A DNA stretch of 32,000 nt from Desulfotalea psychrophila LSv54 (lineage in GTDB: Bacteria; Desulfobacterota; Desulfobulbia; Desulfobulbales; Desulfocapsaceae). Numbering within the stretch: the first letter of the stretch is position 1; each line of letters starts with the position of its first letter. A program made the position numbers and the translations under genes. Where the stretch lies: the NCBI RefSeq assembly GCF_000025945.1, contig NC_006138.1, positions 2,100,001-2,132,000 of the forward strand, read 5' to 3'. The notes beneath the pieces were generated by a model. The model made no database searches, had not been told where the DNA came from, and saw nothing but the letters and a program-made list of their open reading frames with translations. Positions 6,852 through 31,979 of this stretch are shown here, one piece after another.

Positions 6852-6966
6852 ATAAAAAATGAGAAAGCTGACGTTAAATTGTATTTTTTAGCTTGATTCC
6901 TCTTGCATAAAGACATTCTAGTATTATTTTATTGGGAATGATTATTAAATATTTATAGAGGCTAGT

Positions 6967-7497: not shown

Positions 7498-7590
7498 TCT
7501 AGGGATCGTTTTTGTCTCTTTAACCTGTTATCATTGCTCTTGGTAGGACGTTTCCTTGAGCTCATGAGTGAATAGAGAGGTAGAGAATCA

Positions 7591-8238: not shown

Positions 8239-8256
8239 GTCGTTTTCCATTGATAC

Positions 8257-8296
8257 AAAAAAGGCTGATATCCATTGTGGATATCAGCCTTTTTTT
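8257..8296. terminator. Bidirectional terminator between the hemolysin-III gene and glyA
   Basis: A A6 tract, then an 11-bp stem GGCTGATATCC (8263-8273) / GGATATCAGCC (8279-8289), then a T7 tract (8290-8296). The A/T tracts are symmetric, so it could work on both strands. Confidence 0.8.
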
Positions 8297-8319
8297 ATTC
8301 ATCTTTTTAGGAAAGACGA

Positions 8320-14986: not shown

Positions 14987-15009
14987 TGTTATCGCTCTCA
15001 ATTGGTTCG

Positions 15010-15031
15010 GCAGGGCTGTAATCAGCCCTGC
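15010..15031 (-). other. Inter-cistronic stem-loop between pstS and pstB
   Basis: 9-bp GC-rich stem GCAGGGCTG / CAGCCCTGC with a 4-nt loop and no U-tract. It sits right after the pstS stop, so it could be a transcript-stabilising or partial-attenuation hairpin giving excess pstS mRNA. Confidence 0.45.
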
Positions 15032-15042
15032 TGGCAAAATAT

Positions 15043-16083: not shown

Positions 16084-16125
16084 CTTCTTCTCCTGGTAGT
16101 TTTTTTACCGTAGGGTTTATTGGTG

Positions 16126-17388
16126 TTACCACTTTGTTTCGAATTTCTTACGCAGGAATACCGCCGCGGCATTCATGGAGATTAAAAACAGCAGCAGGAT
16201 CATGATGGCCGCTGAGGTTTTTTCGGAAAAGGCCCGTTCCGGGCTGTCTGCCCAAAGATATATCTGTACGGGCAGGACCGTGGAGGGGTCAGTGATTCCA
16301 CCTGGAATGTCGACAATAAAGGCAATCATGCCAATCATCAGCAGGGGTGCCGTTTCACCAAGGGCCTGGGCCATACCAATGATTGTCCCTGTCAGCATGC
16401 CGGGCATGGCCAGGGGGAGGACATGGTGGGTTATGGTCTGCATCTTGGAGGCACCAACGCCAAGGGCTGCTTCACGGATGGAGGGGGGCACTGATTTGAG
16501 GGAGGCCCGGCTGGCAATGATGATTGTTGGCAGGGTCATCAGGGAGAGTACCAGCCCACCCACCAGCGGAGTAGAGCGGGGTATTCCCCAGATGTTGATG
16601 AAGACTGCAAGACCGAGCAGGCCAAAAATAATTGAAGGCACAGCGGCAAGGTTGTTGATGTTTACCTCAATCAGATCTGTCCACCTGTTGCTCGGGGCAA
16701 ACTCTTCGAGATAAATTGCCGTGGCCACCCCAATGGGAAAGGAGAGGCAGAGGGTGATGAGGAGAGTATAGAAAGAACCACAGGCTGCTCCCAAAATTCC
16801 TGCCAACTCCGGTTCACGCGAATCTCCCGCCGTGAAAAAGGTGGTGTTGAAAACCATCTCTATTTTATTATTTGCCACCAGGCTGTCAATCCAAGCCAGC
16901 TGTTGATCGTTCACCCGGCGATTGGCCTGAGGCAGAGAACGATCAATTTCTCCCTTCATCAGCATATCCACATCATCGTTTGCAGGAACCCAAAATTTCA
17001 GTCGACTGCCTATTATGGCCGGATCTGCAAGTACCTTATCCTGAATTTCAAAGGAGGCACCGGGACTGATCAGGCGATAGAGACTCTTTTTATCCTGTCG
17101 ATCTGTTACCTCGGGAAACAGGGCATAAAGAGATCTCTTCACCATGGCCGGATAATTTGCCAGGCGAAGGTTTTCGCCTACGAAATCTGCTGGTCGTAAC
17201 TCCACCTCAAGCTCTATTTTTGTCTGCTCAAAGGCCTTATAGCCATGGGTAAAAATATCAGAGAAGAGAAAGGCAATAAAACAGAGAGCTACAGCTATGG
17301 CAGAGACACCGGCAAGACGGAAACAACGGTCCTTGCGATATCGACTCTGTAGTTTTGCACTATTTTGTATGCTGGCGAGTGTATTCAT
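16126..17388 (-). CDS. pstA: Phosphate ABC transporter permease PstA (long form with large N-terminal periplasmic loop)
   Basis: 420-aa ORF. After the first TM helix there is a ~170-aa soluble loop, then the PstA permease core with the EAA-type loop ('SLKSVPPSIREAALGVGASKMQT'). Confidence 0.88.
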   Translation of the reverse strand: MNTLASIQNSAKLQSRYRKDRCFRLAGVSAIAVALCFIAFLFSDIFTHGYKAFEQTKIELEVELRPADFVGENLRLANYPAMVKRSLYALFPEVTDRQDKKSLYRLISPGASFEIQDKVLADPAIIGSRLKFWVPANDDVDMLMKGEIDRSLPQANRRVNDQQLAWIDSLVANNKIEMVFNTTFFTAGDSREPELAGILGAACGSFYTLLITLCLSFPIGVATAIYLEEFAPSNRWTDLIEVNINNLAAVPSIIFGLLGLAVFINIWGIPRSTPLVGGLVLSLMTLPTIIIASRASLKSVPPSIREAALGVGASKMQTITHHVLPLAMPGMLTGTIIGMAQALGETAPLLMIGMIAFIVDIPGGITDPSTVLPVQIYLWADSPERAFSEKTSAAIMILLLFLISMNAAAVFLRKKFETKW

Positions 17389-17490
17389 TTTTTTTTTACT
17401 TATGGGTGATTTGAAAAATTAAGATTTTCAATAAATATCAGCGAGGCCCCGACTCCGAGGCGAATTAAAAAATTTCTGGCAGGGCAGAGA

Positions 17491-18876
17491 TTATTCATAT
17501 TGCTCCCGGTATCTGCGCACAACATAGAGGGCAATGATGTTAAGAAACAGGGTGAAGATAAAGAGAAAGAGACCCAGGGCAAAGGCGGCCAGGGTCTTGG
17601 CACTGTCAAATTCCTGATCTCCCGTGAGCAGAGTGACGATCTGTACGGTTACGGTGGTCACCGCCTTCAGGGGATTATAGGTAAGATTGGCCGAGAGTCC
17701 CGCCGCCATAACTACGATCATTGTCTCGCCAATGGCTCTGGAGACGGCGAGTAACACACTGCCGACGATCCCCGGCAGGGCCGCAGGGATAACAACGTTT
17801 TTTATTGTTTCATAGGAGGTTGCCCCCAATGCCAGGGAACCATCACGTAGGGATTGGGGAACCGCATGGATAACATCATCTGAGAGTGAGGAGACAAAGG
17901 GGATAATCATAATTCCCATGACAAGACCCGCTGCCAGAGCACTTTCAGAGGAGACCGCAAAACCGAGATTCGAGCCAACATCCCGAATCATGGGAGCTAC
18001 GGTAAGGGCTGCAAAAAAGCCATAGACAACGGTTGGAATCCCGGCCAAAATCTCCAGAAGAGGTTTGACCCAGGTGCGCACCTGTTCCGATGCATATTCG
18101 GAGAGAAAAATTGCCGAGAGCAGACCTATGGGAATGGCAATAGCCATCGCTATGAGGGCAATCAAAATGGTACCGGCAAAAACCGGTACAGCACCGAAGG
18201 CCCCGGATGATCCTGCCTGGTCGACTCGCATGGCCGTCTGTGGACTCCACTTGAGTCCGAGAAGGAAATCTAAAACGGGGACCTCTCTGAAGAAGGCAAT
18301 TGATTCAATCAGCACCGACATGATGATACCAAGAGTGGTAAAGATGGCTACAGCAGAGCAGAGCATTAAAAAGATGGTAGAGAGTCGTTCCACGATATTT
18401 CTGGCACGTAACTCCAGGCTGATATTGCGGTAACTCAGGTAAAAGCCCAGGATGGTGAGGCCGAGTGAGAGATAGGCCATAAGGCTTTGCCAGCCTTGCT
18501 GAGTGGCGAGATAGAGTCGTGCACTTCCTGTGGCGGTGGCATTGTTGAGAGAGGTGACAATATCTCCCCGAATGGCATTTTTAACGTCATTCATTACCAG
18601 GGAGAATTCGTTGCCTGAGAGGCTCTGTAGCTCTTGGGGCAAACCCCTCTTTACAGCAAGGGTTAAGAGATGTCCCTCGGCCATCTGCCAGAGGCTCCAG
18701 ATAGCGAGTGCCGGTACGGCCGTCCAAAAAGCCACGAAGAGGCCGTGATATAGTGGCAGGGAGTGCAGAGAGCGCAGACCATCCTGTCTCCACAGTTCCT
18801 TGGCTCTGCCGGATCCTTTCAGGTAAGCTGCCAGGGCAAGAACAAGAATTATTGGCAGTAAATAGTTGTAAAGCAT
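17491..18876 (-). CDS. pstC: Phosphate ABC transporter permease PstC (long form)
   Basis: 461-aa ORF. It has the PstC core with the EAA loop ('AVPQSLRDGSLALGATSYETI') and an extended N-terminal region of about 150 aa. Confidence 0.88.
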   Translation of the reverse strand: MLYNYLLPIILVLALAAYLKGSGRAKELWRQDGLRSLHSLPLYHGLFVAFWTAVPALAIWSLWQMAEGHLLTLAVKRGLPQELQSLSGNEFSLVMNDVKNAIRGDIVTSLNNATATGSARLYLATQQGWQSLMAYLSLGLTILGFYLSYRNISLELRARNIVERLSTIFLMLCSAVAIFTTLGIIMSVLIESIAFFREVPVLDFLLGLKWSPQTAMRVDQAGSSGAFGAVPVFAGTILIALIAMAIAIPIGLLSAIFLSEYASEQVRTWVKPLLEILAGIPTVVYGFFAALTVAPMIRDVGSNLGFAVSSESALAAGLVMGIMIIPFVSSLSDDVIHAVPQSLRDGSLALGATSYETIKNVVIPAALPGIVGSVLLAVSRAIGETMIVVMAAGLSANLTYNPLKAVTTVTVQIVTLLTGDQEFDSAKTLAAFALGLFLFIFTLFLNIIALYVVRRYREQYE

Positions 18877-18912
18877 CGTCTATCTCGTCTGGGAAAAATT
18901 TGATCTAAAAAT

Positions 18913-19572
18913 TCAGGATATTCTGACAATGTCGCCTTCCACCAGATAGACGACCTCTTCGGCAATATTGGTTGCCCGGTCAGCAATTCTCTCCAGGTAG
19001 CCTGCCACTAAAAAGACATCTATCAGGGCCGACGAGCAGTCGTGGCCTTGATAAAATTCTGCCTTGATATTCTTGTATGCGCTGTCCCGCAGGGCATCAA
19101 CATCGTCGTCTAAAAAGAAGACCTGTCGTGCCTTGGCCGAATCTCGCTTGACCAGGGCGTCAATACTCATCTTCAACATTTCAATGACAATCCTGGACAT
19201 GGTCGAATAATCAATGGTCTGGCCGACCTCGATCTGTTGCTCGGAAATTTTTCTCACACAGCGCCCTATATTTACAGCTGTGTCGGCTATCCTTTCCATT
19301 TCGTTGTTTATTTTAATAACAGCTACAATGAATCGAAGGTCGCTGGCCACGGGTTGATACAGTGCTAACAGCTTGAGACAATCCTCTTCGATCTCTACCT
19401 CCAGCTCATCTATCTCATAATCAGAGCGAATCAGAGAGTTGACAGCCTCTTCATTGTGGCTCTCGATAACCTCTGTTGCCCTTTGTACCCGGTTTTCTAC
19501 CAGGCTACTCATGTGCATCATCTTGCAGTTAAGGGCGATTAATTCATTTTGAAAGCTATCCTGTAGAACCAT
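18913..19572 (-). CDS. phoU: Phosphate signalling complex protein PhoU
   Basis: It has two PhoU repeats with the E/DxxxD metal motifs ('NNEMERIADTAVNI', 'AGYLERIADRATNIAEE'). ATG 19572 (MVLQDSF...) has an AGGAGAGG RBS. The basic 30-aa extension from 19662 is rejected. Confidence 0.9.
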   Translation of the reverse strand: MVLQDSFQNELIALNCKMMHMSSLVENRVQRATEVIESHNEEAVNSLIRSDYEIDELEVEIEEDCLKLLALYQPVASDLRFIVAVIKINNEMERIADTAVNIGRCVRKISEQQIEVGQTIDYSTMSRIVIEMLKMSIDALVKRDSAKARQVFFLDDDVDALRDSAYKNIKAEFYQGHDCSSALIDVFLVAGYLERIADRATNIAEEVVYLVEGDIVRIS

Positions 19573-19661
19573 TATATTTTTCCTCTCCTTGCCGCTGCCG
19601 GCCTGTTTTTTTCTTTGCCGCTTTACTGATGTACATATTAGAGGCCTGATGTTCGTTTGCA

Positions 19662-19728
19662 ATTAGGTCTTTATTAGGATTAGGTTAGGAGGGGTAAAAC
19701 TTGTTGCAGTGAGGAGGTAAAACCTGCA
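19662..19728. promoter_or_regulatory. Direct-repeat cluster in the phoU/phoB divergent region (candidate PhoB boxes)
   Basis: ATTAGG occurs at 19662, 19673 and 19679 (plus TTAGG at 19685). GGTAAAAC occurs at 19693-19700 and 19716-19723 (23 nt apart), each followed by TGCA. This does not match the E. coli CTGTCAT Pho box. Confidence 0.3.
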
Positions 19729-19778
19729 ATACTCCTGCATGATTAACCTCCACCGGCAAAAAAATCCTGGGAAATAAA

Positions 19779-20507
19779 ATGGCAAAACTCCATATTCTTA
19801 TTGTAGAAGACGAGGCGGATATCCAGCAACTTGTGAGCTATAACCTCGTAAGAGCAGGTTTTAATGTGACGTGTGCAGATTCGGGAGAGGAGGCTCTGGG
19901 CTGTCTGGCCCGGGAGGCCTTTGACTGTATACTCCTTGATATCATGCTTCCCGGGATCAGCGGTCTTGAGGTCTGTCAGAGCATACGGCAGAACGAGGGC
20001 AAGTTGGACGCAGGGAGCCCCATCATCATGATGACCGCCAAGGGAGAGGAGGAGGATATTATTGACGGCCTGGAAAAGGGTGCCGATGATTACATCACTA
20101 AGCCATTCAGCCCCAAGGTGCTTGTGGCCCGGGTAAAGGCGGTGGTTAGACGAGGCCAAAAGGCAGAGGCTCACTCGGACAGCGGTCATATTAGCATTGC
20201 CAATCTCGTTATTGATCAGGGACGATATGAGGTTACGGCACAGGGAAAGGCAATCCAGCTCACTCTTACAGAATTTGGTATTCTGGTCCTCCTTGCTGAA
20301 AAGCCTGGTTGGGTCTTTACCAGACAGCAGATCATTGATGCGGTACGGGGATATGATTTTTTGGTTACCCCTAGGGCCATTGATGTACAAATTTTCGGTT
20401 TAAGAAAAAAACTGGGTGCTGCCGGTCAGTCTATCGAAACTGTGCGCGGCATAGGCTATAAGTTTAAAGATCCCCAGGAAGAGGACCTGGAACGGGGGCA
20501 GCGATGA
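19779..20507 (+). CDS. phoB: OmpR/PhoB-family response regulator
   Basis: It has a receiver domain (ILIVEDE...LLDIMLPGISG...MMTAKGEE) and a winged-helix output domain (LTLTEFGILVLLAEKPGWVFTRQQI...RAIDVQIFGLRKKL...IETVRGIGYKF). It overlaps the kinase gene through ATGA and lies divergent from phoU-pst. Confidence 0.88.
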   Translation: MAKLHILIVEDEADIQQLVSYNLVRAGFNVTCADSGEEALGCLAREAFDCILLDIMLPGISGLEVCQSIRQNEGKLDAGSPIIMMTAKGEEEDIIDGLEKGADDYITKPFSPKVLVARVKAVVRRGQKAEAHSDSGHISIANLVIDQGRYEVTAQGKAIQLTLTEFGILVLLAEKPGWVFTRQQIIDAVRGYDFLVTPRAIDVQIFGLRKKLGAAGQSIETVRGIGYKFKDPQEEDLERGQR

Positions 20508-22312
20508 AAGCTAAGAAAATAATCTGGCAAATTTTCCCGGCAAACCTGCTCATCCTCCTTGTCGCTCTGACAGCAGCAACATGGTATAGCACTGCAAGTA
20601 TTCAAGCATTCTTTCTGGCTGAAACTGAAAACAGCCTTGAGTCAAGGTGTCGTTTGGTGGGTGCCCGGGTAGTTGAACTTGTCGAAGAAGATAATATAGC
20701 TGAACTCAGGGATTTTATCGTTCAGGGTGGAAGGGAATCGGGCGTACGCCTTACTGTTATAGCTGCTTCGGGTAGGGTGCTTGCCGACTCCAACGAAGAT
20801 CCGGATATCATGAACAATCATCGGAATCGCCCCGAAGTTGCTACGGCATTGTCAGGGACAACAGGCAGCTCCCTTCGCTTTAGCACGACCCTGAGTGATG
20901 CCCTTCTCTATGTGGCCATCCCCCTTCGTTTGCAGGCATCTCCCGTCACAACGAATCTGATCCTGCGAGCCTCTCTATCGATTTCTTCTCTTTATCAGAC
21001 AATAGCCAGAATTAAACGACGAGTAGCCCTGGGGGCACTGGCCATTGTTATTTTGGCTATCCTCACCACCCTCTTTATATCGCGAAATATCAGCCGTCCC
21101 CTTGAGGAGCTGAAAATATGGGCGGAACGATTTGCTCATGGTGATTTTTCTAAGAGAAAAGAGCTACTTCAGAGCAGGAATGCATCGAGGGAGGTCGTCG
21201 CCCTGGCAAAAACCATGGAGAGGATGGCTGAAAATCTGCATGAAAAAATAGATATGATCAGCAATCAACGAAATCAGCTTGAAACTCTTTTTTCAAGTAT
21301 GCGGGAGGGGATTATTGCCATCGACTTCGAGGAACGAATTGTCCTGATAAACGATGCCGCTACCAGACTATTTGATCCCGGTGGCTCGCCGTCTGCAGGG
21401 AAGCTGGTGCAGGAATTTACCCGCAGCCTTGACCTCCTTCAGCAGATTCAGTATGTGCGGGAAACGGGTGAATCGCTGAAGGCTGAGCTTACCCTGCATG
21501 GAAGCCAGACAACCTCTTACCTGCAGACAAGTGCTGTTCCTTTCCATATGGCAAACGATGACAGCAGTGGAGTGCTCATTGTCTTAAATGATGTTACCCA
21601 TCTGCGACGACTTGAAAGCGTTAGGCGGGACTTTGTTGCCAATGTCTCCCACGAACTGCGCACCCCCATTACTGCAATACGTGGTTATGTGGAAACCCTC
21701 CTTGACGGAGCCCTGGATCAGAAAGAGGATGCCAGGCGATTTCTCGCCATCGTCCTCCGGCAATCGTCACGGCTCAGTGATATCATCAATGATCTACTTG
21801 CCCTGTCACGGATCGAACTTGATTCCAGTACCGATAATATTGAACTCGAAGAGCAACATATCTGTAGTGTTGTTCGTGCTGCTCTGCAAACCTGTCAGAT
21901 AGATGCCGAGCAAAAGGGGATTATTCTTCAGTTGCACTGTCCGGAGGATATAAGGGTCCCGCTTAATCCTCATCTCATTGAGCAGGCTTTGGTGAATCTT
22001 ATTGTTAATGCTGTGCGCTATAGTCCGGAAAAAAGTGAGATTAGGGTGGAAGTTCTTGCCTGCGAGGAAGGGCAGGAGGTATCTATCAGCGTTGCAGATG
22101 ATGGTTGTGGTATAGGGGCAGAGCATCTACCAAGGGTTTTTGAAAGATTCTATCGTAGTGATAAGGCACGGAGCAGGGAGTTGGGTGGAACGGGACTCGG
22201 ACTTGCCATTGTTAAACATATTGTTCAGGCCCATAATGGTAGGGTCGCAGTTAATAGTGAGGAAGGGGTTGGGACAGAGTTCTCTTTTTTCCTGCCAATA
22301 AAGGGAGAGTAG
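20504..22312 (+). CDS. phoR: Sensor histidine kinase PhoR-like (2 TM, ~140-aa extracytoplasmic domain, HAMP, PAS, HisKA, HATPase)
   Basis: It has the H-box 'FVANVSHELRTPITAIRGY', N-box 'LVNLIVNAVRYSP', G1 'DDGCGIG' and G2 'GGTGLGLAIVKHIV'. Predicted TM helices are at about aa 10-30 and 174-192. Confidence 0.85.
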   Translation: MKAKKIIWQIFPANLLILLVALTAATWYSTASIQAFFLAETENSLESRCRLVGARVVELVEEDNIAELRDFIVQGGRESGVRLTVIAASGRVLADSNEDPDIMNNHRNRPEVATALSGTTGSSLRFSTTLSDALLYVAIPLRLQASPVTTNLILRASLSISSLYQTIARIKRRVALGALAIVILAILTTLFISRNISRPLEELKIWAERFAHGDFSKRKELLQSRNASREVVALAKTMERMAENLHEKIDMISNQRNQLETLFSSMREGIIAIDFEERIVLINDAATRLFDPGGSPSAGKLVQEFTRSLDLLQQIQYVRETGESLKAELTLHGSQTTSYLQTSAVPFHMANDDSSGVLIVLNDVTHLRRLESVRRDFVANVSHELRTPITAIRGYVETLLDGALDQKEDARRFLAIVLRQSSRLSDIINDLLALSRIELDSSTDNIELEEQHICSVVRAALQTCQIDAEQKGIILQLHCPEDIRVPLNPHLIEQALVNLIVNAVRYSPEKSEIRVEVLACEEGQEVSISVADDGCGIGAEHLPRVFERFYRSDKARSRELGGTGLGLAIVKHIVQAHNGRVAVNSEEGVGTEFSFFLPIKGE

Positions 22313-22385: not shown

Positions 22386-22961
22386 TTAAGCTGCTTTTTT
22401 TACAAACTGAGTAAGGAGAACAAGACGCTGTCCTTCTACCCGGCCTTCAATGTGTGCGGCATTGTCGGCAACCAGGCTGATATTGCGGACAGTGGTTCCG
22501 CGTTTTGCCGTGAATCCACCACCCTTAACATTGAGATCTTTGATAAGAGTTACAGAATCGCCATCGGCAAGTGGGGTTCCATTGCTATCAACGTGGACTA
22601 CGGAACTCTCCTCGGCCTCTTCTTCTTGTCCTAATTGGGCCCAGGCCAGGGTTTCTTCTTCAAGATAGAGCATATCAAGAAGATCCTGCGGCCAACCTTC
22701 GGCCTTTATTTTATTCAAGATACGCCAAACCATCACCTGAACTGCTGGTATCTGGCTCCACATGGTATCATTGAGACAACGCCAATGGTGTACATCGTCT
22801 AATTTTTCGATTTGTTCTGCACAATGGGAGCAGATTAAAACAGATTTGTCTGCATTTGCTGCAGATTCTGGTGGAACAGCAAAAACCACAAGATTTTCAA
22901 TTGCATTACATAACTCACATTTACTCTCACTACGTGCATACAACTCTTCCTGAACACTCAT
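22386..22961 (-). CDS. phnA: PhnA/YjdM-family zinc-ribbon protein (long ~190-aa form)
   Basis: It has the C-terminal PhnA domain (DSNGTPLADGDSVTLIKDLNVKGGGFTAKRGTTVRNISLV...HIEGRVEGQRLVLLTQFVKK) and an N-terminal Cys pair set (CELC...CSHC). The start is taken at ATG 22961, which has a GGAGA RBS. ORF 23054 would add a spurious hydrophobic leader. Confidence 0.8.
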   Translation of the reverse strand: MSVQEELYARSESKCELCNAIENLVVFAVPPESAANADKSVLICSHCAEQIEKLDDVHHWRCLNDTMWSQIPAVQVMVWRILNKIKAEGWPQDLLDMLYLEEETLAWAQLGQEEEAEESSVVHVDSNGTPLADGDSVTLIKDLNVKGGGFTAKRGTTVRNISLVADNAAHIEGRVEGQRLVLLTQFVKKAA

Positions 22962-23066
22962 TGACAAAAATTCTCCATTTTTTTTAATAAAAACAACCTG
23001 CGATAATGGGGCGCATGATAACATAAGTGCCAACAGAAAGATATTTTTGCTCAAGAGAGAAGCTTA

Positions 23067-23474
23067 CTATTTCTTTGTCGGGGACGAAAGAAAGCAACTC
23101 TTTAGCCAAGAAGAGAATCGTTGCCACCAGTTACCTCTGAGCTCCAGGATGATATCCTCTCGACGGCGGGTGGCTATTTGCAGTTCCTCTTCGCTGAAAT
23201 TTTCTCGGCCAAGATTTTCGGCCAGTTCAATATCCAGAAGTAGATGTTTATTGTCTGCACAGTTTATAACAGCTACCTCAATCTCTTCAAGCTTTAACTC
23301 CTGACAGGCTGTATAACGCCTGAAACCTGAGATAAGACGGTGGTTTTCATCAACAACAATGGGGTGGAGAAGACCTACCTTGGCAATAGAATTTTTCAGC
23401 GGAGCCAGATCGCCGGTACCTTGCCTGATTCTTGCTGCAGGATCCACAATTATCTCTTCAATTTTTAGCTTCAT
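23067..23474 (-). CDS. ParB/Srx N-terminal-domain-only protein (135 aa)
   Basis: ParB box I-like 'LKNSIAKVGLLHPIVV', the GxRRxxA arginine patch 'SGFRRYTAC' (23307-23327) and box III-like 'AENLGRENFSEEEL' are all present. There is no HTH or dimerisation domain, and the C-terminus is Trp-rich. A GGAGG RBS is present. Confidence 0.7.
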   Translation of the reverse strand: MKLKIEEIIVDPAARIRQGTGDLAPLKNSIAKVGLLHPIVVDENHRLISGFRRYTACQELKLEEIEVAVINCADNKHLLLDIELAENLGRENFSEEELQIATRRREDIILELRGNWWQRFSSWLKSCFLSSPTKK

Positions 23475-23663
23475 CTTTCCTCCTTAAAAGAAATATTCTC
23501 TATTAAAAAACCTATATTAATCTCAAGTATACACACTAAGTTCTTTGTAGACCCCATACCTTTTTCAAAAATAGTTCCTTTCGCCAGTTAACTAAGCACA
23601 GAGGGATAGGGCGGTTGGATAAAATATTTCTTGAACTGTTTTGCCTGTCGCTCAGTTTTTCTT

Positions 23664-23691
23664 TGCCAGTTGTCTGTAGAGTAATATAGAA
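23664..23691 (+). promoter_or_regulatory. Candidate sigma70 promoter of the partner-switching/ABC operon
   Basis: TTGCCA (23664-23669), a 16-nt spacer, then TATAGA (23686-23691), about 37 nt upstream of ATG 23728. This is a sequence match only. Confidence 0.3.
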
Positions 23692-23727
23692 TTATCGTAT
23701 ATCTTTATAGCAATAATAAAATACAAA

Positions 23728-25542
23728 ATGATGCTTCAAGGCTTTTTCTCAACTATGCTAAAAAAAATCAAACCGACGAGTCTTGGACAACGTACAGTCC
23801 TCTATGTGCTTGCGCCCACCCTTGTCATTCTTCTTTTTTCCGGTTTTCTTACATTTCAAACAGCCCGAGATATCCTCCTGCAGGAATGGATAGAGCAGGC
23901 CAATACAAGCCTAAAAAATGGGGCAAATATAATAGATGGCCGTCTCGAAGATCCCAAAAGACTCCTGCAACTTATTCAAAAGGCTCCGGTGGGTCCTGCT
24001 GGTTATGCAACGCATGAATATCTTATCGATCGTCTGAAGGGGATAAAAGGTGTGCTGGCAGCGGAAGTGGATTGGCCGAAATTTTCAGATGGCCCTCTTC
24101 CGCTACCTCTTACCGGTGCTGCTGTCATCACCACTATGCACAGTGGGGCGGCCACAGGTGTGCACACAACAAGGCCTAGTTATACCGAGACTTTTGCTCA
24201 AAAAAAGATCTCTCTTGTTTCAGAGTATAGGGATCAGAACAATGAATCTATTGGGAAAATTCAGGTATTTATATCTCTTGCAGATCTACTGAGTGATGTA
24301 ACAAATTCTCTTTGGTGGCGGGAGCAGTCGTCTTTTATTATTGATAAAGAGGGACATACCCTTGCTCACCTTTCTCAGAGCGAATTAAATAGAGCAAAAA
24401 AGATATTTGAGAAAAAAAAATGGAATAGGATAAATAAAGAGAAGTTTGGGACAATCTTTAGTGAGGGAAAACCCCCTAAGGAAGTCTGTGTCTTTTATCA
24501 TCTGGAGCAGGCCCCCTGGACTTTGGTTGTTATTGTCTCTGGCGAGAAGGTACTCAAGCCGCTACTGAATTTTCGTAATGCATATTTTTTTATCACCATC
24601 ATCACTGGACTTACCATCCTTCTCACTATCCATCTGGTAACCTCGAAGGTTAACCGTAAAATTAATCAGGTTTCAGCAGCGGCCAGTCGACTTGCTGCTG
24701 GTTATTTTAGTGAACCTCTCTCCATAGAAACCGATGATGAAATAGGTGCCCTCTGTCAGAACTTTAATGAGATGACCAGCCAACTTAAGAATGGGTTAGA
24801 TCTGCAGAAATCCATAGAGCTTGCTCGGGAGGTACAGCAGAATTTACTGCCTGGCAAGGATTTAAAAACAGCAGAGGTAGAAATTTCCGGCACCTGTATA
24901 TACTGTGATGCCACGGGTGGTGATTATTTTGATATTATCCCCTGTCCCCTATCAGATAGTATTGGTGTTGCTGTCGGTGATGTCGTGGGCCATGGCATTA
25001 GTGCCGCCCTGCTTATGACTACCACCCGGGCTTTAGTTCGCTGTAGACTTAACAGTTCGGGCACTCTGGCCGATGTTGCCACCGAGGTGAATGCTCTTCT
25101 TTATAAGGACACGGCCCAGGCTAGTAATTTTGTGACCCTTTTTCTGATGAAACTTAGCCCGGAACAACGAAAAATTTCCTGGGTGCGGGCAGGACATGAA
25201 CCTGCCATAGCCTATAATGCACGAACGCGGGTCTTTACCAACATACAGGGTAATGGTGTCGCTTTGGGGGTTAATCAGGCGTATCGCTACCAGGATCAGG
25301 AAATCACTCTGAGTAAGGATGTTCAGATACTGCTCATTGGTACAGACGGTATTTGGGACGCAGAAAATCCAGAAGGGGAACAATTTGGCAAAGAACGGGT
25401 GCAGAGCCTGCTGGCTGCAAATGCTCATCTTCAACCAAGAGAAATAATTTGCAATATATCAGAATCAATAAAAGTTTTTCAGAAAGATGCACCTCAATCA
25501 GACGATATTACCTTCGTCATTATAAAATTCCCTGCCATATAA
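23728..25542 (+). CDS. Transmembrane sensor PP2C phosphatase (extracytoplasmic domain - HAMP - SpoIIE/RsbU-type)
   Basis: Predicted TM helices are at about aa 23-44 and 285-305, flanking a ~240-aa outside domain. The HAMP domain reads (KINQVSAAASRLAAGYFSEPLSIETDDEIGALCQNFNEMTSQL). The PP2C/SpoIIE motifs are 'AREVQQNLLP', 'GGDYFD', 'GDVVGHGISAALLM', 'LIGTDGIWD' and 'QSDDITFVIIKF'. Confidence 0.88.
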   Translation: MMLQGFFSTMLKKIKPTSLGQRTVLYVLAPTLVILLFSGFLTFQTARDILLQEWIEQANTSLKNGANIIDGRLEDPKRLLQLIQKAPVGPAGYATHEYLIDRLKGIKGVLAAEVDWPKFSDGPLPLPLTGAAVITTMHSGAATGVHTTRPSYTETFAQKKISLVSEYRDQNNESIGKIQVFISLADLLSDVTNSLWWREQSSFIIDKEGHTLAHLSQSELNRAKKIFEKKKWNRINKEKFGTIFSEGKPPKEVCVFYHLEQAPWTLVVIVSGEKVLKPLLNFRNAYFFITIITGLTILLTIHLVTSKVNRKINQVSAAASRLAAGYFSEPLSIETDDEIGALCQNFNEMTSQLKNGLDLQKSIELAREVQQNLLPGKDLKTAEVEISGTCIYCDATGGDYFDIIPCPLSDSIGVAVGDVVGHGISAALLMTTTRALVRCRLNSSGTLADVATEVNALLYKDTAQASNFVTLFLMKLSPEQRKISWVRAGHEPAIAYNARTRVFTNIQGNGVALGVNQAYRYQDQEITLSKDVQILLIGTDGIWDAENPEGEQFGKERVQSLLAANAHLQPREIICNISESIKVFQKDAPQSDDITFVIIKFPAI

Positions 25543-25543
25543 T

Positions 25544-28045
25544 ATGAAGAAAACATCTCAAAAACCAGTTTGTAAAACGTCTCTGTTCTTTTGGGCCTTC
25601 CATGGCAATCTTAAACTGCAGATATGCTTGTTTTTTATAGTTGTTTTGATTGTCGGGGCTCGGGTCCTGCCCCTAGAGATGCAAAAAAGGGTAATTAATG
25701 ACGCTATTGCCCTGCAAAATGTCGAAAAATTATTTCTTTACTGTGGGATATACCTGCTTTCGATTACCCTGGCAGGAGCATTGAAAATAGCAATTAATTA
25801 TATCCAGTCGATTATCGGCGAGCGGGTAATGTTTGCTATGCGCCAACAACTTTATGAGCATATTCTCACCCTGCCACTGAGCTTTTTTCGCAAAACCCAA
25901 CCGGGAATGGTTGTTTCTGCCCTGATGTCTGAACTCAGTGCTGCAGGCACCTTTGCCGGCATGGCCTTTGCCTCTCCCCTGACTAATATATTGTCACTTC
26001 TCGCCTTTGCCATTTATCTGATGTGGCTCCATACCTCCCTTGCCCTCCTTACCCTTGTTATTTATCCTGCAGTGTCTTTTATTCTTCCCTTTCTTCAGAG
26101 AAAGGCTAATAGGGCGAATAAGTCTCGGGTTGATATTACTCGAAGCGCATCAAACCAAATAGCAGAATCAGTTTCAGGAATTGCAGAAATACAGGTCCAT
26201 GCTGCCTATCAGCAAGAGGATAAGAAATTTCGTTACTATAATGAAAAGCTGAAAAAAGTCCGAATTCGTTGGTCATTGTTAAAGTTTGGCATCAAGACAA
26301 CCAATAACTATTTTGTTAGTCTTGGCCCATTTTTAGTCCTTCTTTACGGTGGTTATCTTATTATGCATGGCCAGTTAGGACTTGGTGCCATGGTAGCCTT
26401 TCTCTCAGCTCAGGAAAAGCTCTATGATCCCTGGAAGGAGCTTATTGATTTTTATCAGGTCTATCAGGATGCCTCGATACGCTACAAACGTACCATGGAG
26501 TATTTTGATCATCAGCCCGAGTTTCTTCTTGAGGCCCCACCCGTAGAATCGATTGACGACAGGGCCTCTGTTGAGGTTACAGGCCTCTCCTTTCAAACCG
26601 AAGAGGGGAAATATCTTCTAAGAGATGTATCTTTTAGGTTAAAGCCGGGTGAGCATATGGCCTTGGTCGGTTTTTCTGGTAGTGGGAAGAGTACATTAAT
26701 TCAGTGTATTGCCAAAATGTATCAGTACAGTAAGGGCACCATAATGCTTGGTGGCAAAAATCTTGCCGATATTTCCAAGAATAGCCTGGTGGAGAAGATG
26801 GGCTATATTTCCCAGCGTCCTTTTATCTTTACCGGTTCTGTTAAAGATAATCTCCTCTATGCTGATCTTGCGGTGAGAGAAGTTGCCGGTGATGAGCAAT
26901 TGGCTGAGCCTGAGCTTGACCGGATGATTCTTGCCCTTCAGCAAGCAGGCCTCTATGCCGATGTTATGCGTTTTGGCCTTGATACCATCGTTGGCTCTGA
27001 TCAGATTGATATTATCAATGCAGTTATTAATATTCGGCCAAATTTTCGTAAAACATTTGCCGTTCAATTGGAACCTTATGTCGAATTTTATAAGAGCACA
27101 GATTATCTCTATCACTCCTCCCTTATTGGAAACATTATTTTTGGGGTGGCAGTGCCTAATGGTCTGGGAGTTGAACAGCTAAGTAAGCATAAGGACTTTA
27201 CCACCTTTCTTAAACAGACAGGTCTTCTTGAGCCACTTGAATCTCTTGGTGAAAGAATAATTAGTGAAACCCTTGCCCTTATTGGAGATCTGGAGGATCC
27301 CGATCTTCTTGCTGAAAAAAGCCCTATTCCCACAGAGTCTCTTGAGCGGACAAGAAAAATTCTTGCCCGTAGTAAGGACAAGAAAATTACTGAAACGGAT
27401 AAAAACTTTTTGTTAACAATCGCTCTGGAGTTTACCCCTGCTATTCATACCATGGTAGGTCTGCCTATGGCGCTCCGGGAGAGTATTCTGGAGGGGCGGA
27501 AAAAATTCCCTGCCTGGGCGGAGGAATTTTTCCCGGGAGAATTTAAATTTTATAATAAGGATAGTTATATTCATAACCAGTCCTTACTTAATAATATTTT
27601 TATGGGCAAGGCTAAGCAGGGTATGCCCCATGCTCAGGAGAAGATAAATAAGGCGATTATTCAACTCCTTATTGAAGAGGATGTCCTGGAATATGTGGTA
27701 TACTTGGGGATGCAATTCCAGGTAGGTAGCGTCGGAGACAGACTTTCTGGAGGACAAAAACAAAAACTGGCCATAGCCCGGGTACTTCTGAAGAACTCAT
27801 CTCTTGTTATTATGGATGAGGCTACATCGGCGCTGGATAATGCTTCACAGGCGCGCATTCAACGTCTTATCGATACTAGGTGGCGTGATAAACGAACCGT
27901 TATTGCAGTTATGCATCGTCTGGATGGTATTGATTCATTTGATAAAATTGGGGTAATGAAGGCTGGACGGTTATTAGAAGTGGGAAGTTACCAAGAACTT
28001 ATTGATAAAAAAGGTGTATTTCATGAACTCTTATTCGGAAGATAA
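25544..28045 (+). CDS. ABC exporter (type-I TMD + NBD half-transporter) with a ~250-aa insertion inside the ATPase domain
   Basis: It has a 6-TM ABC_membrane region, Walker A 'GFSGSGKST' (26669-26695), Q-loop Gln (26813-26815), signature 'LSGGQ' (27743-27757), Walker B 'LVIMDE' (27803-27820) and H-loop 'VMHR'. The ATG lies 1 nt after the phosphatase stop. Confidence 0.85.
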   Translation: MKKTSQKPVCKTSLFFWAFHGNLKLQICLFFIVVLIVGARVLPLEMQKRVINDAIALQNVEKLFLYCGIYLLSITLAGALKIAINYIQSIIGERVMFAMRQQLYEHILTLPLSFFRKTQPGMVVSALMSELSAAGTFAGMAFASPLTNILSLLAFAIYLMWLHTSLALLTLVIYPAVSFILPFLQRKANRANKSRVDITRSASNQIAESVSGIAEIQVHAAYQQEDKKFRYYNEKLKKVRIRWSLLKFGIKTTNNYFVSLGPFLVLLYGGYLIMHGQLGLGAMVAFLSAQEKLYDPWKELIDFYQVYQDASIRYKRTMEYFDHQPEFLLEAPPVESIDDRASVEVTGLSFQTEEGKYLLRDVSFRLKPGEHMALVGFSGSGKSTLIQCIAKMYQYSKGTIMLGGKNLADISKNSLVEKMGYISQRPFIFTGSVKDNLLYADLAVREVAGDEQLAEPELDRMILALQQAGLYADVMRFGLDTIVGSDQIDIINAVINIRPNFRKTFAVQLEPYVEFYKSTDYLYHSSLIGNIIFGVAVPNGLGVEQLSKHKDFTTFLKQTGLLEPLESLGERIISETLALIGDLEDPDLLAEKSPIPTESLERTRKILARSKDKKITETDKNFLLTIALEFTPAIHTMVGLPMALRESILEGRKKFPAWAEEFFPGEFKFYNKDSYIHNQSLLNNIFMGKAKQGMPHAQEKINKAIIQLLIEEDVLEYVVYLGMQFQVGSVGDRLSGGQKQKLAIARVLLKNSSLVIMDEATSALDNASQARIQRLIDTRWRDKRTVIAVMHRLDGIDSFDKIGVMKAGRLLEVGSYQELIDKKGVFHELLFGR

Positions 28046-28532
28046 TTATCAATCTTGCCAGATGAAGAAAAATTTGGCTGTTTTGCAAGAGGTTGATTTT
28101 TTTTCGCAGGTGCCCCCGCAGGCCCTGAAAATTATCGCCTTTCTTTGCAGGAGAATGTTTCTTGACGTAGGAGAGATTGTCTTTGCCAAGGGGGATGATC
28201 CGGCCAGGTGCTTCTACATTGTTTCTGGAGAGTTCGAGCTTATCTGTACAGCTGACTCAGGAGGAGAATCACATATTGCCAAGCAGGGAGATCTGGTGGG
28301 TTCTCTTTCACTTCTTGCCCGGCATTCATCTCCTTTTACTATGACTGCCAGCAAGGAGAGTGATGTCTTGGTAATAGACAGAGCTACCTTTGAGAAGGTG
28401 GTGGTGCAATTCCCTGAACTATATAAAATAACGGCAGAAAATATTGCAAAACGGATTTATCGTTGGGATGCCCTACAGTGTGAAAAAAGATGTTCTGACA
28501 AATCTCCTCGGGGCGGGGTGAGTTTCCTCTAA
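28023..28532 (+). CDS. Stand-alone cyclic-nucleotide-binding-like (CAP effector-domain) protein
   Basis: The cNMP-domain beta-barrel pattern is present (LQEVDFFSQVPPQALKIIAFLCRRMFLDVGEIVFAKGDDPARCFYIVSGEFEL...GDLVGSLSLL...ASKESDVLVIDRATFEKVV). There is no HTH. ATG 28023 has an AAGGTG RBS and overlaps the ABC stop by 23 nt. TTG 28002 and ATG 28062 are alternative starts. Confidence 0.75.
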   Translation: MNSYSEDNYQSCQMKKNLAVLQEVDFFSQVPPQALKIIAFLCRRMFLDVGEIVFAKGDDPARCFYIVSGEFELICTADSGGESHIAKQGDLVGSLSLLARHSSPFTMTASKESDVLVIDRATFEKVVVQFPELYKITAENIAKRIYRWDALQCEKRCSDKSPRGGVSFL

Positions 28533-28544: not shown

Positions 28545-28949
28545 ATGGAATTTATTTGGGCACGTCAAAATACGCAGGAAAATTTACAGGATCTGCGCGA
28601 AGATATTGAGAGTCTGGGCAAGAGGTGGCAGTTAGATAAAAAAACCATGTTTAATCTGCAACTTATAGTGGATGAATTTGTCACTAATCTTGTCAGCCAT
28701 TGCAACTGTGGTATTGGTATTCATCTCACTATAACCAAGGAGGAAGAGAATCTCCTCATCACCATAAAAGATAACTGTAGTCCTTTTAACCCTCTTGCTG
28801 TTGCTCTGCCTAATCTATGTGCGCCTCTCTGTGATAGAGAAGCAGGGGGGCTAGGTATTTTCCTAATTCGTAAAAAGAGTAGATACATTAATTATAGAAG
28901 AACAGATTCAGAAAATATTACTACGATAACCTTGGCGATAGAGAAATAG
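28545..28949 (+). CDS. RsbW/SpoIIAB-like anti-sigma-type serine kinase (HATPase_c_2)
   Basis: 134-aa ORF with the N-box 'IVDEFVTNLVSH', a G1-like 'IKDNCSPFNPL' and a G2 'EAGGLGIFLIRK'. An AAGAGG RBS is present. Confidence 0.8.
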   Translation: MEFIWARQNTQENLQDLREDIESLGKRWQLDKKTMFNLQLIVDEFVTNLVSHCNCGIGIHLTITKEEENLLITIKDNCSPFNPLAVALPNLCAPLCDREAGGLGIFLIRKKSRYINYRRTDSENITTITLAIEK

Positions 28950-28979: not shown

Positions 28980-29315
28980 ATGGAAATTACAATTAGTAAA
29001 GATAATAATATACTGGTCACTAACCTGTCCGGTAAACTCAACTCAACAACGGTGACCAAACTCGAGGAGTCCCTGCGACAGCATACTTCGCCGCCATTGA
29101 GTCACCTTGTCCTTAACTGTCAGGACCTTGAGTATATATCAAGTGCTGGTCTCCGCATTGTTCTGTCTCTTACTAAAACATTTGCAAAAACTGACTGGCA
29201 TTTTACCATCTGCTGTTTGCAGGAGCATGTCCTTGAAGTTTTTGAAATGTCAGGATTTGATAGTCTGGTAACGATAAAGACGAGCCAGGAGGAGGCTAAG
29301 GAAAAGCTCAGTTAA
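28980..29315 (+). CDS. STAS-domain anti-sigma-factor antagonist (RsbV/SpoIIAA-like)
   Basis: 111-aa ORF. It has the 'LSGKLNSTTVTKLEESL' N-terminus and a conserved phospho-acceptor context 'DLEYISSAGLRIVLSL' (Ser54 at 29139-29141), plus 'VFEMSGFDSLVTI'. Confidence 0.85.
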   Translation: MEITISKDNNILVTNLSGKLNSTTVTKLEESLRQHTSPPLSHLVLNCQDLEYISSAGLRIVLSLTKTFAKTDWHFTICCLQEHVLEVFEMSGFDSLVTIKTSQEEAKEKLS

Positions 29316-29556
29316 GGATGGTACTTCTTGACAGAGCAGTCCAGAATATTGAGTGCTTTTTTCAGGTATCCAAGCGTGATAGTGTAGTTATTCGTCAATC
29401 GGCTTATTATAATGTGGAATAACTGGTATCCTGAAGCTTTTCACAAAAAATGAAAAACGCATAAAGCTTAAGTTTCCAAGGTCGCACAGGATCCGATTAA
29501 GTTGAGTGATGTGAAGGAACTTGAGAGAATTCATCAGAGATGAATTTAAAACTGCT

Positions 29557-29796
29557 ATGCTAATTGTTAAATGTGCTGCCTGTAAGAAGAAGTTATGGTC
29601 TTATGAAAAAATAGGGCAGGGCGAGGTGTTGCGTTGCCATAAAGAGCGGATACAGAAGTTCTTTTACCAAGCTGAGCCGGGGAAGGCAGAGCATAAAATT
29701 TACTGCTCCTGTGGAAAAGAGATCGGGATAGATAGGGGTAAGTTTTTTAAAATGATAGCAAAGGCCTTTACTTATTCTGGAACCAAAAGAAATTAA
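29557..29796 (+). CDS. Small Cys-rich (zinc-ribbon-like) hypothetical protein
   Basis: ORF 29521..29796 (TTG start; first ATG at 29557, MLIVKCAACKKK...). It has CxxC near the N-terminus and CxC ('YCSCG') about 40 aa later. There is no convincing RBS, so coding status is uncertain. Confidence 0.4.
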   Translation: MLIVKCAACKKKLWSYEKIGQGEVLRCHKERIQKFFYQAEPGKAEHKIYCSCGKEIGIDRGKFFKMIAKAFTYSGTKRN

Positions 29797-29930: not shown

Positions 29931-31979
29931 TTAAACTTTAAATTGTCCCACTGCTGCTTTGAGGGATTCTGCTATTTCGAAGAGTTCGCCTGCCCGGGTC
30001 TTAACCTGGGTGCTGGCATTGCTCATATCGTTTGCACTGCTGTTTACTCCTGCAATCTCTGCCGAGATACTCTCGGTTACGGTAGAATTGCTTGCCACGT
30101 TTTCACTCACCTCGGTGATGCCGCTTGAGGCCTGGCTGACATTGATGGCAATTTCTTTGGTGGTGACGTTCTGCTCTTCCACTGCGGTGGCAATGGTCGC
30201 AACGATTTGATCGACATCGGCAATAACCTGACGAATTTCATCAATTTCCTTTACGGTTACTCCCGTTGCCTGTTGAATGCCATCGATCTTCTTTTTAATA
30301 TCAAGGGTTGCATTGGCTGTCTGTTTGGCCAGATCCTTAATCTCGTTTGCCACTACGGCAAAGCCCTTACCTGCCTCACCGGCCCGAGCCGCTTCGATGG
30401 TGGCATTAAGGGCCAGCAGGTTTGTCTGCTCGGAAATTTCGGTGATGACCTCCGTCACCCGGGTGATCTCTGCCGCGGCTGTGCCAAGTTCGTTGACACG
30501 TTGCGATGCCTGTTGAGAACGATCAACGGCCTGTTGGCTAATACCCTTTGCCTTACCTGAATTTTCTGCAATTTCGCCTATGGTTGCGTTCATCTCTTCA
30601 GCAGCTGTAGCCACCATGGAAATATTGACCGAGGCCTGTTCCATCGCCGCTGCCACGGAATTTTGGTTGGCGCTCATCTCTTCAGCTGACTGAGCCACCT
30701 GGGTTGATCTGCTGGCGGTATCTAAAACTCCTTTTGCCATATCATCGGAGATGGCGACAAGCTCAGTAGAAGAGTCGTCTAGGACGTTCACCCGTTGATT
30801 AATGTCCCCTATGACTCCCCGTAGGCTGGTTGACATCTCGTTAAGCGAAACTGCCAGCAGGCCAATTTCATCCTTTTGATCCACATCCATCCGCTGGGTC
30901 ATATCACCCTCTGCCATCTTTCTTGCCAACTCAACACCTTTAAAAAGAGGGCGGGTGATCAAGAGGGTCAGGATAAGACCCAGTCCCAAGGCCAGGACAA
31001 CGCCCACGACAATGCCAATAATGATGAGTATCTTGCCCTTTTGGGCAATTGCTTCGGCCTCTGTAGCAGCTATCTGGGCACTCGTATCTGCCTTGGCAAC
31101 AATGGTATCAACGGTTGCATAAACACGATTCTGATAGGTCATAGCATCTTCTAACAGAAGGGTGCTCATCTTGTGAAAATTTTTATAGGCTGTGTCAATG
31201 GGTTTGGTCATCTCTGTCAGTACGGCAAAGACTTTTTCGCTCTCTGGATAGACCTTAGTTCCCATGATCTCTTTCGCTTCGGCGGGACGACCTGCCCTGA
31301 TGGCCGCCTTTACCTGAGCCACGCTTCCATGAAACTGGTTATGAATTCTCTTTGCCTTTTCAGCTATGGCAAGAATGTCTGGATTTTGAGTATCCATATT
31401 ATTAAGAAATTTGCCGATATTACAGGCATGAGGATCTCCGCCTCCGACAAAGGATCTTCCGGTTGAAATGAGCCTGGCTAGATCTATCAGGAGGACCTCA
31501 TGCTCTTTTACAGATTTTTCCATGAGTTTTTGCCGTAACATGGGATTGACAATATCAGCTCTGACAAGTTGCTGAGACAGTTCTACCGCCTGATTACTGA
31601 TTTCGCCCCATTTTTTAAGGTTTGTTTTAAAATCCCGCCATTCCGGTTTTACCTCTTCGGCAAATGGCAGCTTTTTAAACTCATTAATAGTTATTCCGTA
31701 ATTAGCCCTTGCCTGGGCAAGATCTGTTATGACTTTTTGCCGTTGCTCAATAGAGGCATATGGGGTGAGCAGAGAACGCAATACTCCACTAATAATAGCC
31801 GCTTCGGCCTTGATTTTCAGAATTTTTTCCATTGCTGGCATGCTGTTATTAGCCAGCTCCTGCTCCTGAACATGCAGGGCCTTCAGCTGCAAGACACCAA
31901 CCATGCCGACAAAAACTACAATCAGGGCAGTGAGGGCAAAGCCTCCACCCAGCTTTACCCCTAGCTTCAAATTTTTCAT
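29931..31979 (-). CDS. Methyl-accepting chemotaxis protein (TM1 - four-helix-bundle-like + CZB-motif sensor region - TM2 - HAMP - MCP signalling domain)
   Basis: It has an AAGGAGAGG RBS. TM helices are at about aa 11-32 and 317-341. The HAMP domain reads ([44 protein letters not shown]). The highly conserved hairpin tip reads '[35 protein letters not shown]'. Confidence 0.92.

Follow-up and report, generated by a model that had tools for sequence, protein, structure and literature searches.

The window analysed here is a 32,000-nucleotide stretch of Desulfotalea psychrophila LSv54 DNA (contig NC_006138.1, positions 2,100,001 to 2,132,000). On its plus strand lie, one after another, genes for a HAMP-PP2C membrane phosphatase, an ATP-binding cassette (ABC) half-transporter, a protein resembling cyclic nucleoside monophosphate (cNMP)-binding domains, an RsbW-like serine kinase and a STAS protein (Table 1). 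We describe the ABC protein, whose nucleotide-binding domain (NBD) carries, by profile comparisons, three tandem copies of the helical subdomain, together with the genes that accompany it in related loci.

An ABC exporter with an enlarged nucleotide-binding domain

The ABC gene product is predicted to be a homodimer-type (half-transporter) type IV ABC exporter, with the ABC_membrane domain spanning residues 30-289 in Pfam. Its NBD holds a complete catalytic set: Walker A (GFSGSGKST, beginning at codon 376, nt 26669), the Q-loop (Gln424, nt 26813), the LSGGQ signature (codon 734, nt 27743-27757), Walker B (VIMDEA, beginning at codon 755, with the catalytic Glu759 of IMDE759; 27803-27820), the D-loop (SALD) and the H-loop (VMHRL, beginning at codon 789, with His791 at 27914-27916). 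The positions of Walker A, the Q-loop Gln and LSGGQ given in the first-pass annotation are exact. From the signature onward to the C-terminus, column identity averages 0.84 within the Desulfotalea ABC clade. Because every catalytic motif is intact and strongly conserved in this clade, we argue for a working ATPase and predict that the NBD is catalytically competent.

No named exporter equivalog (MsbA, HlyB/type I secretion, bacteriocin peptidase-containing ABC transporter (PCAT), CydDC or HepA) scores over its NCBIfam cut-off. The best match is MsbA (296.7 bits vs. a cut-off of 602), and the sub-threshold similarities are strongest to MsbA-like flippases. The label ‘bacteriocin exporter with double-glycine peptidase domain’, which JGI gives to homologues, can be rejected, as Pfam finds no C39 peptidase domain in the protein.

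The D. psychrophila database protein is 100% identical to the open reading frame (ORF) but is annotated with 805 amino acids (aa), beginning 28 codons downstream of the start of the 833-aa ORF (25544-25630, plus strand). Homologues conserve residues 10-28 of the longer version, in which T10, L14, W17, N22 and L25 are nearly invariant. Because of this conservation, the ATG at 25544, which follows the phosphatase stop codon by 1 nt, is the likelier start. The phosphatase and ABC genes look translationally coupled.

From Gln424 to LSGGQ734 there are 310 residues, compared with about 57 in MsbA. Pfam matches ABC_tran in two stretches, of which residues 359-456 cover profile positions 1-80 of 137. 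In the alignment with the solved ABCB4 structure, 13 target residues but ~269 query residues separate the two matched stretches; with Ste6, they overlap in the target and are ~239 apart in the query. Since both alignments split far wider in the query than in the target, the NBD must hold ~240-255 extra residues between Q-loop and signature, and it departs from the canonical length of an NBD with a single helical subdomain. The 310-residue gap with about 250 extra residues given in the first-pass annotation is thereby borne out, and the alignments do not return the NBD to normal length. Nor does any annotated family in Pfam or NCBIfam cover the insert: searches with the whole insert and with each of its three parts gave nothing but a chance Arylesterase match (E = 0.01-0.05). 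Pfam also reports a sub-threshold SMC_N match over residues 186-792 of the ABC protein, which can be understood because the SMC-type insertion occupies the same general position.

Repeat structure of the insertion

We compared three units by profile-profile alignment (hhalign, profiles from 74 homologues): the canonical unit 0 (residues 396-486), unit 1 (487-582) and unit 2 (640-740). Units 1 and 2 matched with 99.1% probability (E = 5.7e-19, 84 columns), and unit 0 matched both unit 1 (95.8%, E = 7e-9) and unit 2 (95.7%, E = 9e-9). The connector between units 1 and 2 (583-639) matched every unit with less than 1% probability. Profiles were needed to see the repeat. Self-BLAST of the single ABC sequence gave a weak or no repeat signal, and single-sequence Smith-Waterman scores were weak (z = 5.9 for B-C, with 0/1000 shuffles as high; z = 3.1 for A-B; z = 1.8 for A-C), whereas the profile-profile signal was strong.

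Independent profiles gave the same picture. The NCBIfam ABC profiles were matched twice over their positions ~430-480, once by residues up to ~488 (lobe A) and again from residue 672 (lobe C). When the unit-1 profile was compared with 177,635 PDB sequences, the top match was residues 411-468 of the flippase PglK (E = 0.005), the part with the Q-loop strand and what follows the Q-loop. Each unit has one copy of the motif [ST]-x-x-x-N-[IL]-x-[FY]-G (Table 1), the Asn of which (N436, N530 and N684) is nearly invariant. We take this motif to be the TIKENIIF508G segment of CFTR, which contacts the coupling helices. The CFTR F508 peptide (1ckx) was weakly aligned on the lobe motif in the PDB comparison (E = 1.4).

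The tripled helical subdomain proposed in the first-pass annotation is thus supported and also sharpened. The three copies it named are indeed repeats, but each is larger than the segment it had delimited, since the repeated unit consists of a pre-Q-loop strand, a Q-loop-like turn and a helical subdomain. Ahead of either extra lobe lie a long helix, in which an Arg (R498 or R652) is invariant, and a strand that corresponds to the Q-loop strand. Only the last copy had been said to end in a signature, and this holds: LSGGQ follows lobe C, and lobes A and B lack one. Lobe A is the sole copy contiguous with the real Q-loop Gln, and it aligns with the post-Q-loop segments of ABCB and Ste6 as far as the X-loop (NCBIfam profiles reach ~480-490). 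In lobe B, the Q-loop-like turn has no Gln; the lobe aligns with lobes C and A. Canonical ABC profiles resume in lobe C at profile position ~417-430.

No DNA-level repeat was found across the ABC gene, and for this reason we regard the triplication as ancient and not as an assembly artefact. Assembly duplication, a frameshifted fusion or mis-assigned motifs have in our view a negligible chance of explaining the repeat, given the lack of a nucleotide repeat and the uninterrupted ORF. The artefact is further ruled out by more than 120 homologues, from separate genomes and metagenomes, that agree in length and architecture, and by the low identity among the copies (~13-28%). By these comparisons the NBD insertion is an ancient tandem triplication of the helical subdomain.

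The AlphaFold2 model of the full-length protein has a mean predicted local distance difference test score (pLDDT) of 77.5, and ~80-90 over residues 470-720. It matches PCAT1, TmrAB and TM287/288 in Foldseek (E~1e-23), none of which has such an insert. Connector M, which contains the charged linker of the earlier reading, has helices at 586-590, 597-611 and 617-628 in the model (pLDDT 68-89) and has no Pfam match; the linker itself is mostly structured helix (pLDDT ~80-90) and not a disordered tether. Residues 484-733 modelled alone gave a pLDDT of 86.9 and a predicted template modelling score of 0.83, which indicates that h1, lobe B, connector M, h2 and lobe C would form a compact, self-contained module of ~250 residues. 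Foldseek found no significant PDB neighbour of the isolated insert (best E = 0.98, template modelling score <0.2).

Table 1. Features of the window. Positions count from the first letter of the window; residues are those of the 833-aa ABC protein.
Feature	Position	Strand	Notes
HAMP + SpoIIE/PP2C membrane sensor phosphatase, RsbU/SiaA-like	23728..25542	+	Pfam SpoIIE (PF07228) 1.1e-41, HAMP 2.1e-9
ABC half-transporter gene	25544..28045	+	Uninterrupted ORF, 833 aa; predicted type IV exporter transmembrane domain (TMD) + NBD with triplicated helical lobe
TMD, residues ~30-320	25631..26503	+	Six long helices; Pfam PF00664, E = 1.5e-27; AlphaFold2 helices
N-terminal part of RecA-like core	26561..26812	+	Includes Walker A (codons 376-383, nt 26669-26692)
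Q-loop Gln424 + lobe A, residues 424-486	26813..27001	+	Motif SVKDNLLYA; X-loop-like end GLDTIVGS; no signature
Helix h1, residues 487-511	27002..27076	+	Invariant Arg498; AlphaFold2 helix 488-509; aligns with h2
Lobe B, residues 512-582	27077..27289	+	Strand VEFY; motif SLIGNIIFG; three helices; no signature
Connector M, residues 583-639	27290..27460	+	Helical; unrelated to lobes; holds charged stretch
Helix h2, residues 640-665	27461..27538	+	Invariant Arg652; AlphaFold2 helix 642-662; aligns with h1
Lobe C, residues 666-733	27539..27742	+	Strand FKFY; motif SLLNNIFMG; two helices; X-loop QVGSVGDR
Signature LSGGQ, Walker B, D-loop, H-loop, C-terminal RecA-like core	27743..28042	+	Motif search and alignments
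cNMP-binding-like protein	28002..28532	+	Degenerate phosphate-binding cassette; Pfam PF00027 1.1e-14; annotated 169 aa
RsbW/SpoIIAB-like serine kinase (HATPase_c_2)	28545..28949	+	Pfam PF13581 3e-15
STAS anti-sigma-antagonist-like protein	28980..29315	+	Conserved phospho-acceptor Ser; Pfam STAS 1.2e-18
PstB	14156-15037	-	
PstS-like	15043-16083	-	
Two Pst permeases	16126-18876	-	
PhoU	18913-19662	-	
Probable response regulator ORF	19779-20507	+	
HAMP-PAS, PhoR-like histidine kinase	20504-22312	+	
PhnA/YjdM-like gene	22386-23054	-	Between histidine kinase and cassette
ParB N-terminal-domain gene	23067-23474	-	
Promoter-like site	23663-23692		Ahead of phosphatase gene
91-aa ORF	29521-29796	+	Just past STAS; Cys pairs (CAAC...C..., CSCG) suggest zinc ribbon
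Methyl-accepting chemotaxis protein	29931-31979	-	4HB_MCP sensor, CZB, HAMP

Conservation of the insert and its gene neighbourhood

The more than 120 full-length homologues (~840 aa, 54-66% identity) come from Desulfobulbaceae and their relatives. When the insert alone (residues 487-672) was searched exhaustively against 1.84 billion cluster representatives, 128 were matched, and no ordinary ABC protein was among them; the full-length matches carry the insert at ~490-670 in proteins of 820-1030 aa. Some 258 stretches in species-representative genomes encode a relative, and the best 80 are almost all from Desulfobacterota. In an alignment of 32 sequences of the divergent family, R498, R652 and N684 are kept in 32/32 sequences and N530 in 31/32. 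In contrast, Walker A Lys is kept in 20/32 and the catalytic Glu in 18/32, and Walker A Lys, Q-loop Gln, catalytic Glu and H-loop His are each found in only 17-20 sequences. Judged by these residues, the insert, and not ATP hydrolysis, is the most constrained and conserved property of the whole family.

We examined gene context in the best 80 related loci, using tblastn and an unbiased clustering of ORFs. Only four families are conserved: the ABC protein (80), the cNMP-like protein (74), the STAS protein (63) and the RsbW-like kinase (61). If only the 71 loci with 1.5 kb or more of downstream sequence are counted, the cNMP-like gene is present in 68, STAS in 60 and RsbW-like in 56, the last by ORF clustering (tblastn finds more). 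The order ABC, cNMP-like, kinase, STAS is nearly invariant; the HAMP-PP2C phosphatase adjoins the ABC gene in only ~25/80 loci. Apparent exceptions to synteny are mostly technical or rearranged: one locus (L024) has a masked stretch, and in another (L065) the kinase-STAS pair has moved upstream. In the latter, a metagenome-assembled genome labelled Maridesulfovibrio (positions 4361-8559 of the locus), the RsbW-like and STAS genes are upstream and divergent, and the cNMP-like gene is still downstream of ABC. Because the association survives this rearrangement, it argues for functional linkage and not mere operon inheritance.

The partner-switch proteins look functional. YISSAGL is found in 63/63 STAS homologues, its second Ser aligning with SpoIIAA Ser58, and the N-box (E..N) and GGLG box of the predicted kinase are invariant. 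The STAS protein scores 77.3 bits against TIGR00377 (cut-off 53.45) and weakly against the mlaB model (E = 0.002, under the cut-off). For the phosphatase, the best NCBIfam match is SiaA, also under the cut-off. At the sequence level the cassette thus encodes the parts of a partner switch, namely a STAS protein with a phospho-acceptor Ser, an RsbW-type kinase and a PP2C phosphatase. No sigma-factor domain was found in the scanned ORFs of the window or among the conserved neighbours in the 80 loci, although the target may lie elsewhere. The scanned window ORFs also held no membrane-fusion protein or TolC gene.

The cNMP-like gene, with an annotated start at 28023, overlaps the 3' end of the ABC gene by 23 nt. 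The cNMP fold itself is present in its product, but the phosphate-binding cassette reads G-S...P-F-T instead of G-E...R-[ST]-A. None of the 75 cassette cNMP-like proteins has Glu at the position of CRP E72, and 71/75 have Leu at the position of S83. Canonical binding of cAMP or cGMP by the window protein is improbable, and in the Desulfotalea ABC clade this subunit seems to have turned blind to its ligand. A search with the single window sequence returned only itself; a profile search gave 969 clusters, of which the best 120 were all close family members.

Several other features surround the cassette. A complete phosphate-uptake locus (14156-22312), on the minus strand and then with plus-strand regulators, is not conserved next to the ABC cassette elsewhere; nor is the chemotaxis gene that converges on the cassette conserved in related loci. 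The ParB N-terminal-domain gene is common only to the closest relative (L001). The 91-aa ORF has no Pfam or PADLOC match, and tblastn matched it only in that same relative. Scans for promoters and terminators yielded about as many sites as shuffled sequence would, and tight gene spacing is the only evidence for an operon used here. PADLOC returned only generic P-loop and cNMP-domain matches (mad3, mad8, Pycsar effectors) and none for the phosphatase, kinase or STAS protein, and membership in an anti-phage defence system was rejected on these grounds.

Candidate roles of the extra lobes

In an exploratory analysis, we compared segments of the ABC protein with its partners by rank partial Mantel correlation (mirror-tree) over the 46 loci that have all four proteins, controlling for every other ABC segment. 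The RsbW-like kinase covaried uniquely with lobe B (0.53), less with h1, connector M and lobe C (~0.27-0.28); for the TMD, RecA core and lobe A the value was ~0. STAS also had its highest value with lobe B (0.34). The cNMP-like protein, in contrast, covaried best with the RecA core (0.37) and not with the insert.

We favour the reading, close to the docking platform suggested in the first-pass annotation, that the extra lobes are a docking interface at which the partner-switch module and the cNMP-like subunit regulate the exporter, and would give it an even chance of being right. Docking gains indirect support from the near-invariant synteny, the fusion of cNMP and ABC domains described below and the covariation of lobe B with kinase and STAS. 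It is plausible because there are precedents in MlaB-MlaF and SiaABCD. Several observations weigh against it. At one locus (L025) the ABC gene stands alone despite long flanks, and this is the sole locus truly lacking local partners. RsbW and STAS are absent beside the ABC genes of a divergent branch that also carries the insert; since this branch lacks both, the insert did not originate as an RsbW/STAS docking site. Clade-specific rate shifts could also contribute to the covariation, which is a pointer and not proof.

The same data bear on a second explanation, in which the lobes are an intrinsic structural or allosteric element. Here they would, for example, make additional contacts to the intracellular loops, brace the NBD dimer or recruit a cytoplasmic substrate, and the regulators would act elsewhere, on the NBD core, the TMD or an unrelated target. 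Such a role would fit the conservation of the insert in loci that lack RsbW and STAS, two of which (L085 and L086) have no adjacent cNMP gene either, as it would fit the motif for coupling-helix contact kept in all three lobes and the preference of the cNMP-like protein for the RecA core over the insert. We nevertheless consider it unlikely, as lobe B covaries specifically with kinase and STAS while the TMD and RecA core do not, the four-gene linkage is extremely tight, and the insert-only module folds alone in the model, as one would sooner expect of an appended domain than of a brace.

The divergent branch itself (loci L081-L086, with proteins P0185, P0203, P0224, P0231, P0240, P0243 and P0248) is a sister group without ATPase motifs, with members at 18-30% identity. 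None of Walker A Lys, Q-loop Gln, LSGGQ, catalytic Glu and H-loop His remains in it, but the TMD, the two Arg-helices and the three N-[IL]-x-F-G motifs are all kept. In P0203 and P0224 a cNMP domain is fused C-terminally to the ABC protein, and in L082, L083 and L084 a cNMP-binding gene lies directly downstream; L085 and L086 have the insert and no adjacent cNMP gene. The cNMP domains of this branch keep the canonical cassette GE..PR[ST]A, and a Lactamase_B_2 (metallo-beta-lactamase-fold) hydrolase and adenylate/guanylate cyclases are often encoded nearby. The sister branch may be a cyclic-nucleotide-controlled ABC scaffold without ATP hydrolysis. By this distribution the partners are not equivalent: the cNMP-type partner is the ancient, family-wide companion, and RsbW and STAS joined it only in Desulfobacterota.

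Because motif-dead members keep the TMD, lobes and cNMP partner, the conserved function needs no ATP hydrolysis. This would suit a sensor (‘transceptor’), in which the ABC cycle exposes or hides the lobes, capturing or releasing RsbW-like, STAS or cNMP proteins and so reporting substrate or ATP status to a distal output, with transport secondary or absent. Half of the divergent members lack ATPase motifs and yet keep these parts; moreover, partner switches normally end in an output protein, and the cassette encodes none but the ABC protein. We think a sensor rather unlikely, however, since the catalytic motifs are all intact and strongly conserved in the Desulfotalea clade and no distal target is identifiable.

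A bolder version of the docking reading is that lobe B, connector M and lobe C make up a new regulatory receiver domain, in which copies of the surface that docks coupling helices have been put to new use and soluble regulators plug in like pseudo-coupling helices. An RsbW-like ‘anti-transporter factor’ would target it directly in Desulfobacterota, and the ATPase-dead branch, with a genuine cNMP receptor, would be a cyclic-nucleotide-controlled non-hydrolysing channel, receptor or scaffold. We put this forward as a tentative and somewhat improbable proposal.

If the extra lobes do serve for docking, they would act as surrogate coupling surfaces, and the co-encoded regulators docked there would set the coupling between ATPase and TMD. 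The cNMP-like protein would be a near-constitutive, standing subunit of the NBD, and the RsbW-like kinase and STAS protein a partner switch aimed at the transporter insert and not at a sigma factor. In one option, the kinase occupies lobe B until unphosphorylated STAS pulls it off; in another, it is unphosphorylated STAS that attaches to a lobe, in the manner of MlaB on MlaF and of SiaC on SiaD. The most likely logic is that RsbW-like kinase or unphosphorylated STAS on lobe B or C would alter NBD-TMD coupling, that the kinase would phosphorylate STAS, and that the HAMP-PP2C membrane phosphatase would reset STAS on an envelope signal. We infer the direction of regulation, as we do physical docking.

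Relation to known systems and significance

Type IV exporters (MsbA, Sav1866, PCAT1, TmrAB, TM287/288 and ABCB) share the ABC_membrane fold and full ATPase motif set with the Desulfotalea protein, but their NBD has a single helical subdomain, compared with three lobes and a 310-residue gap here. Inserts between the N-terminal motifs and the signature occur in other ATPases, such as the coiled coils of SMC and Rad50, the insertion domains of UvrA, the ABCF ‘arm’ and the regulatory insertion of CFTR. Those inserts are unrelated folds in mostly soluble ATPases, whereas here it is the helical subdomain itself that recurs, and the protein is a membrane exporter.

A regulatory precedent is MlaFEDB. 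There the ABC ATPase MlaF is bound on its helical subdomain by MlaB, a STAS protein, and less tightly so when a conserved Thr of MlaB is replaced by a phosphomimetic residue (PMC7367683). Both systems have a single-domain STAS protein, a candidate regulator here, with a conserved Ser/Thr; in MlaB this residue lies at the interface (PMC7367683). MlaF differs in being a separate, importer-like-type ATPase with a normal helical subdomain and a C-terminal ‘handshake’. MlaB has no known kinase or phosphatase, whereas the Desulfotalea cassette co-encodes both and the helical subdomain is triplicated.

The regulatory genes resemble SiaABCD, RsbU/V/W and SpoIIE/AA/AB in combining a HAMP-PP2C phosphatase with an RsbW-type kinase and with a STAS protein that has a phospho-acceptor Ser/Thr. 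SiaABCD switches an enzyme of its own operon and not a sigma factor (PMC7278518). In contrast to these switches, the candidate output here is an ABC exporter with a dedicated insert, the cNMP-like protein is an extra obligatory component, and PP2C adjoins the ABC gene in only about one third of related loci. Finally, HetC-type PCATs require a cNMP-binding-fold domain for function, and in HetC its ligand is ppGpp and not a cyclic nucleotide (PMC10986499). HetC and the ‘bacteriocin-type transport-associated protein’ TIGR03896, to which there is a weak NCBIfam match, share with this family a cNMP fold attached to or encoded with an ABC exporter. In HetC, however, the cNMP domain is N-terminal, beside a C39 peptidase and with a normal NBD, whereas in this family it is C-terminal or separate, without a peptidase and with a triplicated NBD.

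A literature search, incomplete in coverage, turned up no described ABC NBD with a duplicated or triplicated helical subdomain, and no described ABC exporter cassette with cNMP-like, RsbW and STAS genes. The curated families of Pfam and NCBIfam include none for an NBD with a tandemly triplicated helical subdomain. ABC exporters and partner-switch modules are already known kinds; their combination with a tripled lobe was not found described.

The post-translational on/off control of bacterial ABC exporters is poorly understood, and MlaB-MlaF is among very few structural examples. That example points to the helical subdomain as a regulatory site, and this family has multiplied that very subdomain. 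If docking is true, the family would be a natural and widespread system, in hundreds of sulfate-reducer genomes, in which to study allosteric control through the helical subdomain. It would extend partner switching to transport, as the first such output if the receiver-domain proposal is also true, and would show how a regulatory platform can arise by duplication within a domain. The ATPase-dead branch, for its part, would be a bacterial case in which an ABC scaffold serves a purpose other than transport driven by ATP.

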